Shown here in pieces: positions 2,650 to 51,959 of a stretch of DNA of 64,000 bases. The stretch is from Shigella phage ESh32. Each line of letters starts with the position of its first letter. Position 1 is the first letter of the stretch. The position numbers were made by a program, and so were the translations under genes. Under the pieces are notes generated by a model. The model saw nothing but the letters and a program-made list of their open reading frames with translations. It had not been told where the DNA came from and made no database searches. The stretch is taken from sequence record ON528742. The stretch is one strand, 5' to 3'.

Positions 2650-3111
2650 ATGACTATCAATACAGAAGTTTTTATCCGTCGAAATAAGCTTCGTCGTCAC
2701 TTTGAGTCGGAGTTTCGTCAAATTAACAATGAGATTCGTGAAGCATCAAAAGCAGCAGGAGTCTCATCGTTTCATCTAAAATATTCTCAACATCTTCTTG
2801 ATCGTGCAATTCAACGGGAGATTGATGAGACATATGTTTTTGAATTATTCCATAAAATAAAAGACCATGTTTTAGAAGTTAATGAATTCCTGAGTATGCC
2901 TCCGCGTCCTGACATTGACGAGGATTTTATTGATGGGGTTGAATATCGTCCTGGACGTTTAGAAATCACAGATGGAAATCTTTGGCTTGGATTTACGGTT
3001 TGTAAACCTAATGAGAAGTTCAAAGACCCGTCACTTCAATGTAGGATGGCAATTATCAACAGTCGTCGTTTACCAGGAAAGGCTTCTAAAGCAGTAATTA
3101 AAACTCAATGA
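2650..3111 (+). CDS. regB: RegB site-specific endoribonuclease
   Basis: 153-aa ORF matches remembered T4 RegB (MTINTEVFIRRNKLRRHFESEFRQ...); AAGAGGAG RBS. Confidence 0.8.
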   Translation: MTINTEVFIRRNKLRRHFESEFRQINNEIREASKAAGVSSFHLKYSQHLLDRAIQREIDETYVFELFHKIKDHVLEVNEFLSMPPRPDIDEDFIDGVEYRPGRLEITDGNLWLGFTVCKPNEKFKDPSLQCRMAIINSRRLPGKASKAVIKTQ

Positions 3112-3118
3112 GGTAAGC

Positions 3119-3664
3119 ATGAGAAAAGCACTACTCGCTGGTCTATTGGCCATTTCAATGATGGCACATAGCTCCGAGCATACTTTCAGTAATGTCCAAC
3201 TCGATAACATGCGTTACGCGTATCAATTCGGGGAACAATTTTCTAAGGATGGAAAATATAAAACACACAAAAATATCCACAAGAGCGGATTAGGTCATAT
3301 AATGGCTGCTATTTTATGGCAAGAAAGCTCTGGCGGAGTTAATTTAAAATCTAAACCAAAGCATCACGCTTATGGAATGTTCCAAAATTATTTGCCTACT
3401 ATGCGAGCAAGAGTTAAGGAACTTGGTTATAATATGACCGATGCTGAAATAAAAAGAATGTTGAATAAACGGTCCAATTCAGCTTCCTGGGCGTACATTG
3501 AACTTTCTTATTGGTTAAATATACATAAGGGCGATATAAGAAAAGCAATATCCTCTTATAATTCGGGATGGAATGTTAAAGCTGGTTCTAAATATGCTTC
3601 TGAAGTCCTAGAAAAGGCTAATTACCTTAAAAATAATAAACTTTTGGAAATAGTAAATGACTAA
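3119..3664 (+). CDS. secreted lytic transglycosylase-like protein (SLT-like)
   Basis: N-terminal signal peptide MRKALLAGLLAISMMAHS; WQESSGG and YGMFQ motifs resembling SLT catalytic region. Confidence 0.55.
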   Translation: MRKALLAGLLAISMMAHSSEHTFSNVQLDNMRYAYQFGEQFSKDGKYKTHKNIHKSGLGHIMAAILWQESSGGVNLKSKPKHHAYGMFQNYLPTMRARVKELGYNMTDAEIKRMLNKRSNSASWAYIELSYWLNIHKGDIRKAISSYNSGWNVKAGSKYASEVLEKANYLKNNKLLEIVND

Positions 3665-3998
3665 AATTTTGGTTTTATGTATAGGATTAATTTCATTTTC
3701 TGCGTTAGCAGATACATCATATACTGAAATTAGAGAGTATGTAAACCGCACTGCGGCAGATTATTGTGGGAAAAATAAAGCATGCCAAGCTGAATTTGCA
3801 CAGAAATTAATATATGCATACAAAGACGGAGAAAGAGATAAATCAAGCAGATACAAAAACGATACATTATTAAAACGATATGCTAAAAAGTGGAATACCT
3901 TAGAATGTTCAGTTGCGGAGGAGAAAGATAAAGCCGCTTGTCATTCAATGGTTGACCGTTTGGTAGATTCTTATAATCGAGGATTGAGTACTAGATGA
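3657..3998 (+). CDS. hypothetical secreted protein
   Basis: 113-aa ORF with signal peptide MTKILVLCIGLISFSALA; ATG overlaps upstream stop. Confidence 0.5.
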   Translation: MTKILVLCIGLISFSALADTSYTEIREYVNRTAADYCGKNKACQAEFAQKLIYAYKDGERDKSSRYKNDTLLKRYAKKWNTLECSVAEEKDKAACHSMVDRLVDSYNRGLSTR

Positions 3999-4462
3999 TT
4001 GTAAAATATATCAAGGGCGATATTGTCGCCCTTTTCGCTGAAGGTAAAAATATTGCGCATGGATGCAATTGTTTTCATACGATGAAAGCAGGAGTCGCAG
4101 GTCAATTAACTAAAGCTTTTCCTAAAATTTTGGAAGCTGATAAATTACAGACTGAATGGGGTGATGTAACTAAACTTGGTTCTTATTCAGTTTATGAAAA
4201 ATACTTTAGGACTCATAAAGCTTACTGCTTTAATCTTTATACTCAATTTCAACCAGGGCCAAATTTTGAGTATTCCGCTTTAATGAATTGTATGTTAGAA
4301 TTAAATGAGTTTGGTGAAAATAAACTGATTAAACCTACAATCTATATGCCTAGGATTGGTGCAGGCATAGGTAAAGGGAACTGGGATATTATTGAGGGGA
4401 TTTTAGATACATATTCTTCTAAATTAGAAATTGTGATTGTTGATTGGGAACCATTATTATGA
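3995..4462 (+). CDS. macro-domain-like protein (possible ADP-ribose binding/hydrolase)
   Basis: IKGDIVALFAEGKNIAHGCNCFHTMKAGVAGQL and PRIGAGIGKGNW resemble macro-domain glycine-rich motifs. Confidence 0.5.
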   Translation: MIVKYIKGDIVALFAEGKNIAHGCNCFHTMKAGVAGQLTKAFPKILEADKLQTEWGDVTKLGSYSVYEKYFRTHKAYCFNLYTQFQPGPNFEYSALMNCMLELNEFGENKLIKPTIYMPRIGAGIGKGNWDIIEGILDTYSSKLEIVIVDWEPLL

Positions 4463-4671
4463 AAGTACATTATCCACATCCATATGACCCAAAGAATAAG
4501 GCAGTAATTATTCGTCAATGGGAACGCATTTGTCGTACTAAATGTCCAATTAATAGTCCACATGATGTAGATAAAGACTACATTGGAACATTCGTTGAAT
4601 ATACCTTTATTGATAAGAAAGGTCGTAAACAGCATGTAGAAGAATACTGCTTAAAGGTTACATGGTTATGA
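4459..4671 (+). CDS. hypothetical protein
   Basis: ORF 4444..4671; ATG at 4459 overlaps upstream TGA. Confidence 0.5.
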   Translation: MKVHYPHPYDPKNKAVIIRQWERICRTKCPINSPHDVDKDYIGTFVEYTFIDKKGRKQHVEEYCLKVTWL

Positions 4672-4874
4672 GCCAAACTAGTATTCTTAAAAATGCCCAC
4701 TGTGAAAAGTGTAAATGGCCGGTTGTTTTTGCTTTATGTAATGATGAAATGGCTTGTGGTTTCGATTATTGGTGCTATTGTTCTAATAAAGGATGCATCA
4801 ATCATAAAGGTGAAGGATTTTATTCGGGATTTTATCCTTATCCTGATTTCGTTAAAGAAGGTAAACCAAAATGA
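4662..4874 (+). CDS. cysteine-rich small protein
   Basis: 70-aa ORF with CxxC...C...CxC...C pattern. Confidence 0.5.
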   Translation: MVMSQTSILKNAHCEKCKWPVVFALCNDEMACGFDYWCYCSNKGCINHKGEGFYSGFYPYPDFVKEGKPK

Positions 4875-5044
4875 ATAGTTTTGAGTTACAATACGAAGTG
4901 TTACGTGAGCTTGATAATTTAATTGAACTCGCTGTTAATAAAGGTTTTGCCATTGGAATCGGTCAAAAAGATACTGGTCATTTAACTATGGAAATATTTA
5001 AGCAAAAGCGAATTATTTTAAAACTCCTGGAAATTAATATATGA
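4871..5044 (+). CDS. hypothetical small protein
   Basis: 57-codon ORF read from sequence (not in track); ATGA overlaps at both ends. Confidence 0.4.
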   Translation: MNSFELQYEVLRELDNLIELAVNKGFAIGIGQKDTGHLTMEIFKQKRIILKLLEINI

Positions 5045-5226
5045 GTCTGAGTAAAGAACAAAAAGATAAATTATTTGAGCTTATCCATGAACTTCTAGAT
5101 GAGCATACAGAAGCAAACACCTTTTATGATGAATACGGCCCGTTATCTCCCGAACAGCAGGAAGAATTTGCTGATCGGTTTGATAAGAAAGAAAATGAAT
5201 TAATAGCTTATGTGAATACGCTTTAA
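5041..5226 (+). CDS. hypothetical acidic small protein
   Basis: 61-aa ORF, ATG overlaps upstream stop. Confidence 0.5.
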   Translation: MSLSKEQKDKLFELIHELLDEHTEANTFYDEYGPLSPEQQEEFADRFDKKENELIAYVNTL

Positions 5227-5235
5227 GAAGGTGAT

Positions 5236-5817
5236 ATGGCGAGTTTAATTTTTACTTATGCAGCAATGAATGCTGGAAAATCTGCTTCTCTTTTGACTGC
5301 TGCGCATAATTATAAAGAGCGTGGAATGAGTGTATTAGTTCTTAAGCCTGCTATTGATACTCGCGATTCTGTCTGCGAAGTCGTTTCTCGCATTGGAATT
5401 AAACAGGAAGCGAATATTATTACAGATGATATGGATATTTTTGAGTTCTATAAATGGGCTGAAGCACAAAAAGATATTCATTGCGTATTTGTAGATGAAG
5501 CTCAGTTTTTAAAAACTGAACAGGTGCATCAATTAAGTCGAATTGTTGATACATATAATGTTCCTGTTATGGCTTATGGATTAAGGACTGATTTCGCTGG
5601 AAAATTATTTGAAGGTTCTAAAGAACTTTTAGCGATTGCAGATAAACTTATTGAACTAAAGGCAGTTTGTCATTGCGGCAAAAAAGCGATCATGACAGCT
5701 CGATTAATGGAAGATGGAACACCAGTTAAAGAAGGTAATCAAATCTGTATAGGTGATGAAATTTATGTTTCTTTGTGTAGAAAACATTGGAATGAATTAA
5801 CTAAAAAGCTCGGTTAG
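5236..5817 (+). CDS. tk: thymidine kinase
   Basis: P-loop MNAGKSASLL, 193 aa, C-terminal Cys cluster typical of type II TK; matches remembered T4 Tk. Confidence 0.9.
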   Translation: MASLIFTYAAMNAGKSASLLTAAHNYKERGMSVLVLKPAIDTRDSVCEVVSRIGIKQEANIITDDMDIFEFYKWAEAQKDIHCVFVDEAQFLKTEQVHQLSRIVDTYNVPVMAYGLRTDFAGKLFEGSKELLAIADKLIELKAVCHCGKKAIMTARLMEDGTPVKEGNQICIGDEIYVSLCRKHWNELTKKLG

Positions 5818-5826
5818 TGCAAAAGT

Positions 5827-5834
5827 TATAAATA
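5827..5834 (+). promoter_or_regulatory. possible late promoter (TATAAATA)
   Basis: exact TATAAATA about 25 nt upstream of ORF 5860. Confidence 0.35.
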
Positions 5835-5859
5835 GGTTTATCTAACTAAAGGGGTATAT

Positions 5860-6072
5860 ATGCTACAATTAACTGAAAAGCAACTTCGCAATCTTACTGT
5901 GCTTCAATTAGATGAAATTCGTAGGGAAGTTGGAAATATCATTTCAGCTTTGCGTCGAGAAGTATCACTCAACCAATCTCCGGCAGACTATACTAGATTG
6001 CGAAATTTTGAAAAATACCTTGATAAAGTTAAGGCCGTGCATCGGCATAAAGTAAATACAGGACAAAAATGA
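5860..6072 (+). CDS. hypothetical protein
   Basis: 70-aa ORF; AAAGGGG RBS. Confidence 0.5.
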
Positions 6073-43587: not shown

Positions 43588-43770
43588 ATGGAATTGGTAA
43601 AGGTAGTTTTTATGGGGTGGTTTAAGAATGAAAGCATGTTTACTAAAGAAACCACAATGATGAAAGATGACGTTCAATGGGCTACTACTCAGTATGCTGA
43701 AGTTAATAAAGCATTAGTTAAAGCTTTCATTGATGACAAGAAAGTATGTGAAGTGGATTGCCGAGGATAA
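43588..43770 (+). CDS. dmd: Dmd antitoxin (discriminator of mRNA degradation)
   Basis: 60 aa MELVKVVFMGWFKNESMF...; GAGGAG RBS; position next to gene 41. Confidence 0.7.
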   Translation: MELVKVVFMGWFKNESMFTKETTMMKDDVQWATTQYAEVNKALVKAFIDDKKVCEVDCRG

Positions 43771-44384: not shown

Positions 44385-45017
44385 ATGATTTATTATATGC
44401 ACAAAAATCCACCGTTTAAATACGGTAAATTTCCTGATGCACAATGTTATAATATAACGCCTGATGAAAATAACCGTGGATATCTTATTGGCACAATTTT
44501 TGTAATTGTTAAAGATAACGAAATCGTTGCCTGGGCAGATTTTAAAGGTACAACACATGATGTTAATCCGGTGCCTTTCACATATTACAATATAATGGAT
44601 TTGGCATATGATTATAATTGGTTTAATCATGACACGTTGGCTCATATTGAAGGTGTAGGATTTGACATCTCTTATTCTAGCTACTCGTTGTGTCCTATGA
44701 GTCGGGCTCATAAAGAACCTGAATATTTTTCATTTAGGAAACGTGTAAACTTTAAACGCAACACAGAGTATGTCGGTGGAATCTTTGTTAAAGATAATCG
44801 AATTATTCGTATTAATTATCCTTTGAGCGTTAGTCAAAAAGATATTGATGTTGATTTAGATTTCACTGAAAATAATATTAATCATATTGCTTCTGTGTAT
44901 TTTGGTATCGATCACAAAATTGTAATATGTGGATATGAATTACCGTTTGAAGAACAGTCTAAAGTAAATGTTTCTATTGACGATCAAATTTTTAATGCTT
45001 TTATGAATAAAGGTTAA
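44385..45017 (+). CDS. hypothetical protein (shares C-terminal motif with next gene)
   Basis: ORF 44376..45017 (GTG 44376); ends ...SIDDQIFNAFMNKG. Confidence 0.55.
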   Translation: MIYYMHKNPPFKYGKFPDAQCYNITPDENNRGYLIGTIFVIVKDNEIVAWADFKGTTHDVNPVPFTYYNIMDLAYDYNWFNHDTLAHIEGVGFDISYSSYSLCPMSRAHKEPEYFSFRKRVNFKRNTEYVGGIFVKDNRIIRINYPLSVSQKDIDVDLDFTENNINHIASVYFGIDHKIVICGYELPFEEQSKVNVSIDDQIFNAFMNKG

Positions 45018-45018
45018 T

Positions 45019-45375
45019 ATGTATAGTTCTGAATTTTCATATTTAAAAATGGAAAAAATTTCATACGATTTTATAGATGAAAAGGTTTATTATAGTTTCC
45101 ATGAACCACGTTTTAATAGTGAGGTTGGGTTTATTGTAGTAAAAGACAATTTCATTTTAAAGATATATTCGGCATTAAAGGATTTTCACTACGAAAATAT
45201 TAACCTAAAATTTGATAAAGAAAACGTTCGTAATTGTGCAGTAACAATTACAGGAAATAAAGGTACGTGTGTTATGTTATCTGATGAAATTAATGATTTG
45301 CTAAATGATGCCGAAAAGGTTGCTATTCCATCTATTGATGACCAAATTTTTAATGCTTTTATGAATAGAGGTTAA
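45019..45375 (+). CDS. hypothetical protein (shares C-terminal motif with previous gene)
   Basis: 118 aa ending ...SIDDQIFNAFMNRG. Confidence 0.55.
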   Translation: MYSSEFSYLKMEKISYDFIDEKVYYSFHEPRFNSEVGFIVVKDNFILKIYSALKDFHYENINLKFDKENVRNCAVTITGNKGTCVMLSDEINDLLNDAEKVAIPSIDDQIFNAFMNRG

Positions 45376-47427: not shown

Positions 47428-47673
47428 ATGGCTAGTACTCGCGGTTATGTTAATATCAAAACATTTGAGCAGAAATTAGATGGAAATAAGAAAATTGAAG
47501 GAAAGGAAATTTCAGTAGCTTTCCCTCTTTATTCTGACGTTCACAAAATTTCTGGCGCTCATTACCAGACATTCCCTTCAGAAAAAGCAGCATATACTAC
47601 TGTATATGAAGAAAATCAACGTGCTGCATGGATTGCTGCAAATGAAGATTTGTGGAAAGTAACTGGTGAATAA
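47428..47673 (+). CDS. soc: small outer capsid protein Soc
   Basis: 81 codons MASTRGYVNIKTFEQKLDGNKKIEGKEISVAF...; matches remembered T4 Soc. Confidence 0.85.
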   Translation: MASTRGYVNIKTFEQKLDGNKKIEGKEISVAFPLYSDVHKISGAHYQTFPSEKAAYTTVYEENQRAAWIAANEDLWKVTGE

Positions 47674-49867: not shown

Positions 49868-50491
49868 ATGATTATTAATCCTGCAGATGTTGAACAGTTA
49901 TCTATAAAAGCTGAAAGCGTTGATTTTCAATATGATATGTATAAAAAAGTCTGTGAAAAATTTACTGACTTTGAGCAGTCTGTTCTTTGGCAATGTATGG
50001 AAGCCAAAAAGAATGAAGCTCTTCATCGGCAATTGAATAAAATCATTAAAAAGCATTTAACTAAATCACCTTATCAGTTATATCGCGGTATATCAAAATC
50101 GACAAAAGAACTTATTAAAGATTTACAAGTTGGAGAAGTGTTTTCAACGAACAGGGTAGATTCATTTACTACTAGTTTGCACACAGCATGTTCTTTTTCT
50201 TATGCTGAATATTTCACTGAAACAATACTTCGTTTAAAAACTGATAAAGCTTTTAATTACTCTGACCATATCAGCGATATTATACTTTCTTCTCCTAATA
50301 CTGAGTTTAAGTATACATATGAAGATACTGATGGGCTAGATTCAGAGCGTACTGATAACTTAATGATGATTGTGCATGAACAAGAATGGATGATTCCAAT
50401 TGGAAAGTATAGAATAACTTCTATTTCAAAAGAAAAATTACACGATTCATTTGGAACATTTAAAGTTTATGATATTGAGGTAGTTGAATGA
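49868..50491 (+). CDS. modB: ADP-ribosyltransferase ModB-like
   Basis: R-S-ExE ART triad (LYRG, TTS, EQEWMIP); 207 aa. Confidence 0.65.
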   Translation: MIINPADVEQLSIKAESVDFQYDMYKKVCEKFTDFEQSVLWQCMEAKKNEALHRQLNKIIKKHLTKSPYQLYRGISKSTKELIKDLQVGEVFSTNRVDSFTTSLHTACSFSYAEYFTETILRLKTDKAFNYSDHISDIILSSPNTEFKYTYEDTDGLDSERTDNLMMIVHEQEWMIPIGKYRITSISKEKLHDSFGTFKVYDIEVVE

Positions 50492-51090
50492 AATACTCAG
50501 TAATGCAACTAAAAGATTTTAAAATAAAATCAATGGATGCATCGGTGCGTGCTTCTATTCGTGAAGAATTACTTTTTGAAGGGTTTAATTTATCTGAAAT
50601 TGAACTTTTAATTCATTGTATTACTAATAAGCCAGATGACCATACTTGGTTAAATGAAATAATCAAATCTCGTTTGGTTCCAAACGATAAACCTCTTTGG
50701 AGAGGTGTTCCAGCTGAGACTAAGCAAGCGTTAAATCAAGGAATTGATATTATTACATTTGATAAAGTCGTATCAGCTTCATATGATAAAAATATAGCTC
50801 TACATTTTGCTTCCGGTTTAGAGTATAACACACAGGTTATTTTTGAATTCAAAGCTCCTATAATATTCAATTTCCAGGAGTATGCTATAAAAGCTCTACG
50901 CTGTAAAGAATACAATCCAAACTTTAAGTTTCCGGATAGCCATCGTTATCGTAATATGGAATTAGTTTCAGATGAACAAGAAGTAATGATACCAGCTGGA
51001 AGTGTATTTAGAATTGCAGATAGATATGAGTACAAAAAGTATTCAACATACACTATCTATACTCTTGATTTTGAAGGATTTAATCTATAA
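50488..51090 (+). CDS. modA: ADP-ribosyltransferase ModA-like
   Basis: LWRG, SAS, EQEVMIP; 200 aa; tandem paralog of upstream gene. Confidence 0.65.
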   Translation: MKYSVMQLKDFKIKSMDASVRASIREELLFEGFNLSEIELLIHCITNKPDDHTWLNEIIKSRLVPNDKPLWRGVPAETKQALNQGIDIITFDKVVSASYDKNIALHFASGLEYNTQVIFEFKAPIIFNFQEYAIKALRCKEYNPNFKFPDSHRYRNMELVSDEQEVMIPAGSVFRIADRYEYKKYSTYTIYTLDFEGFNL

Positions 51091-51212: not shown

Positions 51213-51959
51213 ATGAAACTGTCTAATAATCAAATTCGTAAAATTAAACGTCGTTTAGAGCATACTCAGGCATCTGCAAAAAGACGTTCTAAAGATTTTA
51301 ACTTAGACTTCAATTACATTAAGAACATTTTAGATCAGAAAGTTTGTGCTTACTCGGGAGAACCTTTTGATAATCGTATTGAAGGAGAGAAATTATCATT
51401 AGAACGTTTTGATAATAACGTTGGATACATTAAAGGGAATGTTATTGCAGTAAAGAAAAAGTATAATACATTTCGTTCTGATTATACTTTAGAGGAGTTA
51501 ATTGAAAAACGTGATTTGTTTGCTTTGCGAATTGGTCGTTCATCTGCGAAAAAAGTTCATAAACTAAATTTAGATGAAAAGAAATGGGCTAAAATCAAAA
51601 AGACTTATAATCAAATTAAAGCTATACAGAAAAAACGTGAAAACCGAATTGAACACATTTCTCAGCTTTCTAAATCAAAACAGACCTCTGACGTTAAGCT
51701 AACGATTATAGCGCTTAAAGCTCGTATTGATGGTTCTCGCATAGCAGAAGGCGCTGAAGTTGTTAAACTGAACGTTCTTCTTAAAGGCTCGGATTGGAAA
51801 ATTGTGAAAAAGTTATCAGAAGCAGAAATGCAATATGATATGTGTGATAAAATTATTCAAGGTGTAGAGCGGTATCAAAACTTGTCTTTTATTGATAAAC
51901 TTAAACTGAAAAGAGGATACCCGCTAAATTGTTCAATTTTTAAACTTATCCGAGGATAA
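51213..51959 (+). CDS. srd: Srd-like protein (position/length consistent with T4 srd)
   Basis: 248 aa basic protein between modA and dda. Confidence 0.55.
   Translation: MKLSNNQIRKIKRRLEHTQASAKRRSKDFNLDFNYIKNILDQKVCAYSGEPFDNRIEGEKLSLERFDNNVGYIKGNVIAVKKKYNTFRSDYTLEELIEKRDLFALRIGRSSAKKVHKLNLDEKKWAKIKKTYNQIKAIQKKRENRIEHISQLSKSKQTSDVKLTIIALKARIDGSRIAEGAEVVKLNVLLKGSDWKIVKKLSEAEMQYDMCDKIIQGVERYQNLSFIDKLKLKRGYPLNCSIFKLIRG

Follow-up and report, generated by a model that had tools for sequence, protein, structure and literature searches.

In the 64,000-nucleotide stretch of the genome of Shigella phage ESh32 that we analysed (sequence record ON528742; hereafter the window), a 155-codon open reading frame (ORF) occupies exactly 3995..4462 on the + strand, from ATG to TGA, within the gene order regB (2650-3111; Pfam REGB_T4, 8e-69), vs.1 (3119-3664; SLT domain), vs (3657-3998), tk.4, tk.3 (4459-4671; Pfam DUF7202, 1.7e-38) ... 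tk (5236-5817), as in the annotated T4 and RB51 records. Its product is identical to T4 Tk.4 (NP_049723) at 153 of 155 residues (99%), is of equal length, and lies in the same place between vs and tk.3; given this near-identity and the conserved synteny, the ORF is the T4 tk.4 orthologue, the same gene in a sister Tequatrovirus. We consider it highly probable that this gene, recently named adfM in T4, encodes a stand-alone macrodomain of the regB-vs-tk block that undoes the thymidine-ADP-ribosylation of phage DNA by the toxin DarT2. A first-pass annotation, made from the letters of the window, had already placed an ORF here and called its product macro-domain-like, and the reading frame lies far beyond chance: besides its identity to the T4 gene, homologues are found by tblastn in 2,733 of 50,697 phage records (about 5%). 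With positions 3000-6000 as a megablast query, 736 phage records match, nearly all of them Tequatrovirus and relatives, the best being phage NBEco003 (99.9% identical; RB51, 98.7%).

Tk.4 is a genuine macrodomain, a 155-amino-acid protein of this single domain. The Pfam Macro profile (PF01661) gives it 25.0 bits, above the gathering cutoff of 22, with E 1.9e-5 and a match spanning positions 2-113 of the 118 in the profile, and an AlphaFold2 model built on the family alignment (mean predicted local distance difference test score, pLDDT, 95; predicted template modelling score, pTM, 0.91) has an alternating strand-helix pattern and the three-layer alpha/beta/alpha fold with a mixed six-stranded sheet; these were the two computational checks proposed with the first-pass annotation, and both favoured its call. 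The matches of Tk.4 among PDB sequences are all macrodomains of one class, namely BT1257, Poa1p, TARG1, SCO6735, and DarG, and with a 47-sequence family profile the same proteins are matched at E values of 6e-17 to 1e-7. In structure as in sequence, Tk.4 is nearer to the ALC1-like/TARG1-like class than to the MacroD, viral, macroH2A, or PARG classes. On the basis of the PDB, profile, and model matches, we thus place Tk.4 in the ALC1-like/TARG1-like class, with TARG1, DarG, SCO6735, BT1257, and Poa1p.

The two glycine-rich motifs that the first-pass annotation had likened to ADP-ribose-binding loops are present and conserved, at residues 22-38 and 119-130, and are predicted to bind ADP-ribose. 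Loop 1 (HGCNCFHTMKAGVAGQL; 4058..4108, + strand) reads H-G-C-N25-C ... M-K-A-G33-V-A35 and includes the G-x-G loop that binds substrate together with the conserved active-site Asn, and loop 2, the diphosphate-binding loop (PRIGAGIGKGNW; 4349..4384, + strand), reads P-R-I-G122-A-G124-I-G-K-G-N-W and carries the motif P-x-I-G-x-G. Between them, the hhalign and HMMER alignments mark a third motif, N80-L-Y82-T83-Q84 (4232..4246, + strand). In a set of 264 family members, 150 of which represent clusters at 50% identity, Q84 and Y82 never vary (264/264), N25, N80, D49, G33, G122, and G124 are each conserved in 263, C26 is conserved in 262, and P119 in at least 262. The sole differences between the window protein and T4 Tk.4 fall in loop 1, where G31K and S32A (codons 31-32, window 4085-4090) alter the first glycine of G-x-G and its neighbour. 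At residue 31, 218 of the 264 members have Gly and 10 have Lys; K31 is found repeatedly in nature, in three homologue clusters (P0001, P0003, and P0008), and the protein of phage BYEP02 is 100% identical.

The residue at position 84 separates Tk.4 from the best-known members of its class. We placed the T-K motif, which holds the essential Lys of DarG (K80) and TARG1 (K84), by three methods: profile-profile comparison with TARG1, profile-profile comparison with an alignment of DarG and the phage PhiKZ protein AdfM (probability 98.8%, E 7e-17), and alignment to hidden Markov models (HMM). For PhiKZ AdfM, whose T-K motif hmmalign misplaced by two columns, a MAFFT alignment and hhalign were used. 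All three methods put T83-Q84 of Tk.4 on the T-K motif. Thus, where DarG (PDB 5M31/5M3E/5M3I/7OMU) has its essential Lys80 (K80 of Taq DarG), Tk.4 has Gln84, and where human TARG1/OARD1 (PDB 4J5R/4J5S) has the catalytic dyad K84/D125, Tk.4 has Q84/G126, G126 falling on D125. Loop 2 aligns both with MPRIGCGL of TARG1, BT1257, and SCO6735 and with PPLGxGNGGL of DarG, and N25 aligns with N27 of SCO6735, the Asn of DarG, and N23 of PhiKZ AdfM. Judged from these alignments, the active site is Gln-type and not DarG-type (Lys): Q84 stands in place of Gln85 of SCO6735, and H22-G23-C24-N25, Q84, and G124 of Tk.4 align with H24-V25-C26-N27, Q85, and G128 of that protein, as taken from its PDB sequence.

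The ALC1-like macrodomain SCO6735 of Streptomyces coelicolor (PDB 5E3B) is an efficient hydrolase of the thymidine-ADP-ribose that DarT forms on DNA, and it can rescue Escherichia coli from DarT. Its Q85A and Q85E variants lose all activity on this substrate and N27S loses almost all; the mechanism proposed for it is lysine-free and water-mediated, with Gln85 placing the distal ribose while Asn27 locks Gln85 (PMC9411070). With this precedent, we rejected the missing catalytic Lys as evidence against activity of Tk.4 as a DNA-ADP-ribose hydrolase (PMC9411070). The equivalents of Asn27, Gln85, and Gly128 are all present in Tk.4, but SCO6735 and its close Bacteroides homologue BT1257 (PDB 2FG1/2AFC), likewise Gln-type and ALC1-like, share only about 25-29% identity with it. 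They also carry an insertion of five to six residues, the long and positively charged 'mobile loop', after the Gln; Tk.4 lacks it and is therefore assigned to a subfamily of its own. T83 of Tk.4 is Gly in both proteins, and C26, D49, and Y82 are additional invariant residues particular to Tk.4. SCO6735 is, moreover, a cellular protein tied to the DNA-damage response and not a phage counter-defence gene.

A role of tk.4 against host immunity based on ADP-ribosylation, which the first-pass annotation had raised as one of two possibilities, fits the published genetics of the 99%-identical T4 gene. In a T4 transposon library grown on E. coli expressing DarTG2, only tk.4 came out as a significant hit, and deleting the gene cleanly made the phage sensitive to DarTG2; the authors noted a structural likeness to DarG and named the gene adfM, for anti-DarT factor, macrodomain (bioRxiv 10.1101/2025.11.20.689424, November 2025). 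The counter-defence macrodomain could thus be picked out correctly by a reader given the sequence and nothing else, and with the anti-DarTG2 role published in 2025, the value that remains in the present analysis is mechanistic. We infer that the window allele acts as T4 tk.4 does and that protection would come from enzymatic removal of ADP-ribose from DNA. In a DarTG2 host, DarT2 puts ADP-ribose on thymidines of single-stranded phage DNA and blocks replication; most likely, Tk.4 would then hold the ADP-ribose in its two glycine-rich loops and hydrolyse the bond between thymine and ribose, which would free the ADP-ribose and repair the DNA, and would in effect be an orphan antitoxin. Its chemistry is probably SCO6735-like, that is, lysine-independent and water-mediated, N25 holding Q84 so that it positions the distal ribose, and the Lys-dependent mechanism of DarG and TARG1 is probably not used.

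Several points weigh against this interpretation. With K31/A32 in place of the G31/S32 of T4, the T4 experiments do not directly cover the window allele. The preprint, which is not peer reviewed, says of enzymatic ADP-ribose removal from DNA only that it 'seems likely' (10.1101/2025.11.20.689424), and we found no biochemical assay of T4 Tk.4 in the literature searched. Tk.4 lacks both the catalytic Lys that defines DarG and TARG1, having Q84 there, and the longer mobile loop that is credited with the processivity of SCO6735 on DNA. Finally, Tk.4 is about as close in sequence to Poa1p, a metabolite phosphatase, as it is to DarG.

This last resemblance bears on the view that Tk.4 is mainly a small-molecule enzyme, an ADP-ribose-1''-phosphate phosphatase like Poa1p of yeast or an O-acetyl-ADP-ribose deacetylase, which would clear NAD-derived metabolites from RNA repair or host signalling. 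Such a role is implied by the RefSeq label of the T4 and RB51 genes ('phosphatase; contains A1pp phosphatase motif'), but that label is a transfer of a domain name and not the result of an assay; other submitters have labelled tk.4 'macro domain protein' or 'ADP-ribose binding module protein', and the macrodomain annotation in T4 records is years old, so this part of the finding was already known. A small-molecule role would leave the specific need for tk.4 under DarTG2 unexplained, and the Asn/Gln/Gly active-site pattern fits the DNA-ADP-ribose hydrolase SCO6735. We therefore regard it as improbable as the main function, noting that the two activities are not necessarily exclusive.

Alternatively, Tk.4 could protect without catalysis: it might bind ADP-ribosylated DNA and shield it, or bind to DarT2 directly and inhibit the toxin. 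There are macrodomains that act only as readers, the catalytic Lys is absent from Tk.4, DarG also neutralises DarT through physical interaction (PMC11825919), and SCO6735 has been reported to do so in part (PMC9411070). The toxin-binding activity of DarG resides, however, in a C-terminal DarT-binding domain that the 155-residue Tk.4 does not have, and the two-domain architecture of this DarTG2 antitoxin (about 340 amino acids) is thus not that of Tk.4. DarG is the only match to Tk.4 in NCBIfam and in PADLOC, both matches being weak and confined to the macrodomain half of the models; the DarG equivalog NF048014 scores 25.1 bits, far below its 250-bit cutoff, over profile positions 2-146 of 338. 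None of the neighbours of tk.4 (regB, vs.1, vs, and tk.3) is DarT-like. The strict invariance of the residues essential in SCO6735 (N25, Q84, and G124) points to an enzyme, and a stoichiometric shield would not bring back replication of DNA already modified. A purely non-catalytic mode of protection is, in our judgement, very improbable, and enzymatic reversal of the DarT2 modification remains the interpretation that we prefer.

The other possibility raised in the first-pass annotation was that the phage uses the protein to reverse its own modifications. In this scenario, Tk.4 would erase or tune the ADP-ribosylation of host proteins (RNA polymerase alpha, S1, and EF-Tu) by Alt, ModA, and ModB. 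The annotation had located the modification genes correctly: tblastn with the T4 proteins identifies modB at 49868-50491 and modA at 50488-51090, each 97% identical to its T4 counterpart, the two ORFs having given no match in Pfam. With modB and modA in the same window, a writer and an eraser in one genome are plausible in principle. Mod and Alt belong, however, to the arginine-modifying cholera-toxin family. ADP-ribose on protein arginine is listed as the substrate of DraG-like/ARH hydrolases (PMC8120803); enzymes of the TARG1/DarG/SCO6735 class are not known to act on it, and the one macrodomain noted as specific for arginine is of the MavL type (cited in PMC13036486). No ARH/DraG or MavL entry is among the sequence or structural matches listed for Tk.4, and no dedicated comparison was run. 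The tk.4 and mod loci are about 45 kb apart, and just 1,010 phage records, mainly of enterobacterial T4-like phages, contain a ModB homologue, as against the 2,733 with a homologue of Tk.4, so that most phages with a Tk.4-type macrodomain have no detectable Mod. We found no evidence for a functional link between tk.4 and mod, which on these sequence comparisons is not supported, and we consider self-reversal extremely improbable.

The distribution of Tk.4 extends well beyond the T-even phages, to phages of Klebsiella, Salmonella, Pseudomonas, Vibrio, Acinetobacter, and Aeromonas, and the records with homologues include Salmonella/Escherichia phages of about 86-90 kb and about 138 kb (e.g., UAB_Phi87 and rV5_ev168). 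At E<=0.001, a profile search recovers 17,905 cluster representatives, of which 1,212 remain at E<=1e-30. With homologues in about one in twenty phage records, the breadth of de-ADP-ribosylation by this lineage bears on how frequently DarT-like defences are evaded. In some longer homologues, the macrodomain is fused to NADAR plus DUF4326, to DUF4326 alone, or to NUDIX (P0187, 472 amino acids; P0253, 302; P0262, 247). The NADAR fusion, which joins folds that reverse guanine- and thymine-linked DNA ADP-ribosylation, fits the role proposed here.

Two homologues labelled as proteins of bacterial metagenome-assembled genomes (MAGs) seemed to offer a bacterial, possibly DarT-linked context for Tk.4-type macrodomains, a candidate that we rejected on finding that both contigs (L003, JBOFGC010000414.1; L004, JBOFQK010000158.1) are T4-like phage DNA and do not bear on a cellular toxin-antitoxin origin. 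They carry Rnl1, a Dda-like helicase, PNKP, a T4 spanin, and dCMP deaminase, and, binned as 'Bacilli bacterium' and 'Culicoidibacterales', are probably phage sequence mis-binned as bacterial. L003 also has a DUF4326 gene that stands alone; it adjoins Rnl1, three genes upstream of the macrodomain gene. DUF4326 may be one more factor in the processing of ADP-ribose or in counter-defence.

A second phage macrodomain acting on the same modification invites comparison. PhiKZ gp104, also called AdfM, is likewise a stand-alone protein of similar size that counters DarTG2, and it removes DarT2-made thymidine-ADP-ribose in vitro, with N23A lowering the activity (2026 Cell Reports, PMC13309987). Unlike Tk.4, it is DarG-like, with an F-P-T-K motif and a match to M. 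tuberculosis DarG at E 9e-25, whereas BLASTP aligns it with Tk.4 over only 23 residues (E 0.018); the two AdfMs therefore look independently recruited from different branches of the class. Phages seem to have drawn on no fewer than two different macrodomain lineages to counter this one toxin, since the AdfM of the T4 type is without the catalytic Lys of DarG and TARG1 and shares the Gln-type active-site pattern of SCO6735. One could go further and envision the Tk.4 type as a distinct and very widespread Gln-type lineage, recruited apart from PhiKZ AdfM and lysine-free, with substrates perhaps beyond DarT2-modified thymidine, in which case the NADAR and DUF4326 fusions would be polyvalent factors against both DarT1 and DarT2. 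We put this forward tentatively, as a possibility on the doubtful side of even. The lineage may have as its invariant signature H-G-C-N-C ... D49 ... N-x-Y-T-Q ... P-x-I-G-x-G. Its wider substrates may include uracil-ADP-ribose on RNA, a candidate because SCO6735 cleaves it (PMC13036486), and the products of other nucleic-acid ADP-ribosylating defences.

T-even phages have other counter-measures against DarT toxins, T4 AdfN (gp30.3), a NADAR enzyme against DarTG1, and AdfA (gp61.2) (PMC11825919). Their folds are unrelated to that of Tk.4, and they target DarTG1, which modifies guanine and not thymine. In the window, the homologue of T4 gene 61.2 (adfA) lies at 44385-45017 on the + strand and is only 74% identical to its T4 counterpart, as compared to 96-99% for the neighbours compared; just downstream, a second, weak match (45079-45372), with 35% identity to gp61.2 in its C-terminal half, may reflect a partial duplication that has since diverged. 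Other host-takeover and anti-defence genes are nearly identical to those of T4: dmd, the antitoxin against RnlA/LsoA (43588-43770; 98%), soc (47428-47673; 96%), and srd (51213-51959; 99%).

The tk.4 gene itself is tightly packed among its neighbours. As read from the sequence, its start overlaps the vs stop in an ATGA (3995-3998, + strand), and a putative ribosome-binding site, GAGGA (3979..3983, + strand), lies 11 nucleotides (nt) 5' of the ATG; its stop overlaps the tk.3 start in a second ATGA (4459..4462, + strand), in agreement with the RB51 and T4 annotation. With overlaps at both ends and the GAGGA, tk.4 is a link in a tightly packed gene string that is probably translationally coupled. 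Just 5' of regB, a strong sigma-70-like site (2594-2622, + strand; TTTACT, a 17-nt spacer, and a TG-extended TATAAT; 10 of 12 matches) is a plausible early promoter for the string from regB through vs to tk.4, and no terminator-like site was found on the + strand between it and tk.4; the promoter scan as a whole was not enriched relative to shuffled sequences (16 sites against 19.3 expected).

Within tk.4, 19 nt downstream of the start codon, a perfect G+C-rich hairpin of 9 bp spans approximately 4013-4033 (codons 7-13) in the register AAGGGCGAT/ATT/GTCGCCCTT and, read on the minus strand, has a terminator-like score. Its fold does not differ significantly from that of shuffled sequences (z = -0.9), and its conservation is uninformative because the T4 and RB51 sequences are identical there. 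Between tk.3 and tk.2, at 4662-5044 on the + strand, two small ORFs of 70 (Cys-rich) and 57 amino acids match RB32ORF111c and RB32ORF110c of RB51; T4 instead has tk.1 between tk.2 and tk, a small indel-type difference in the tk-vs block.
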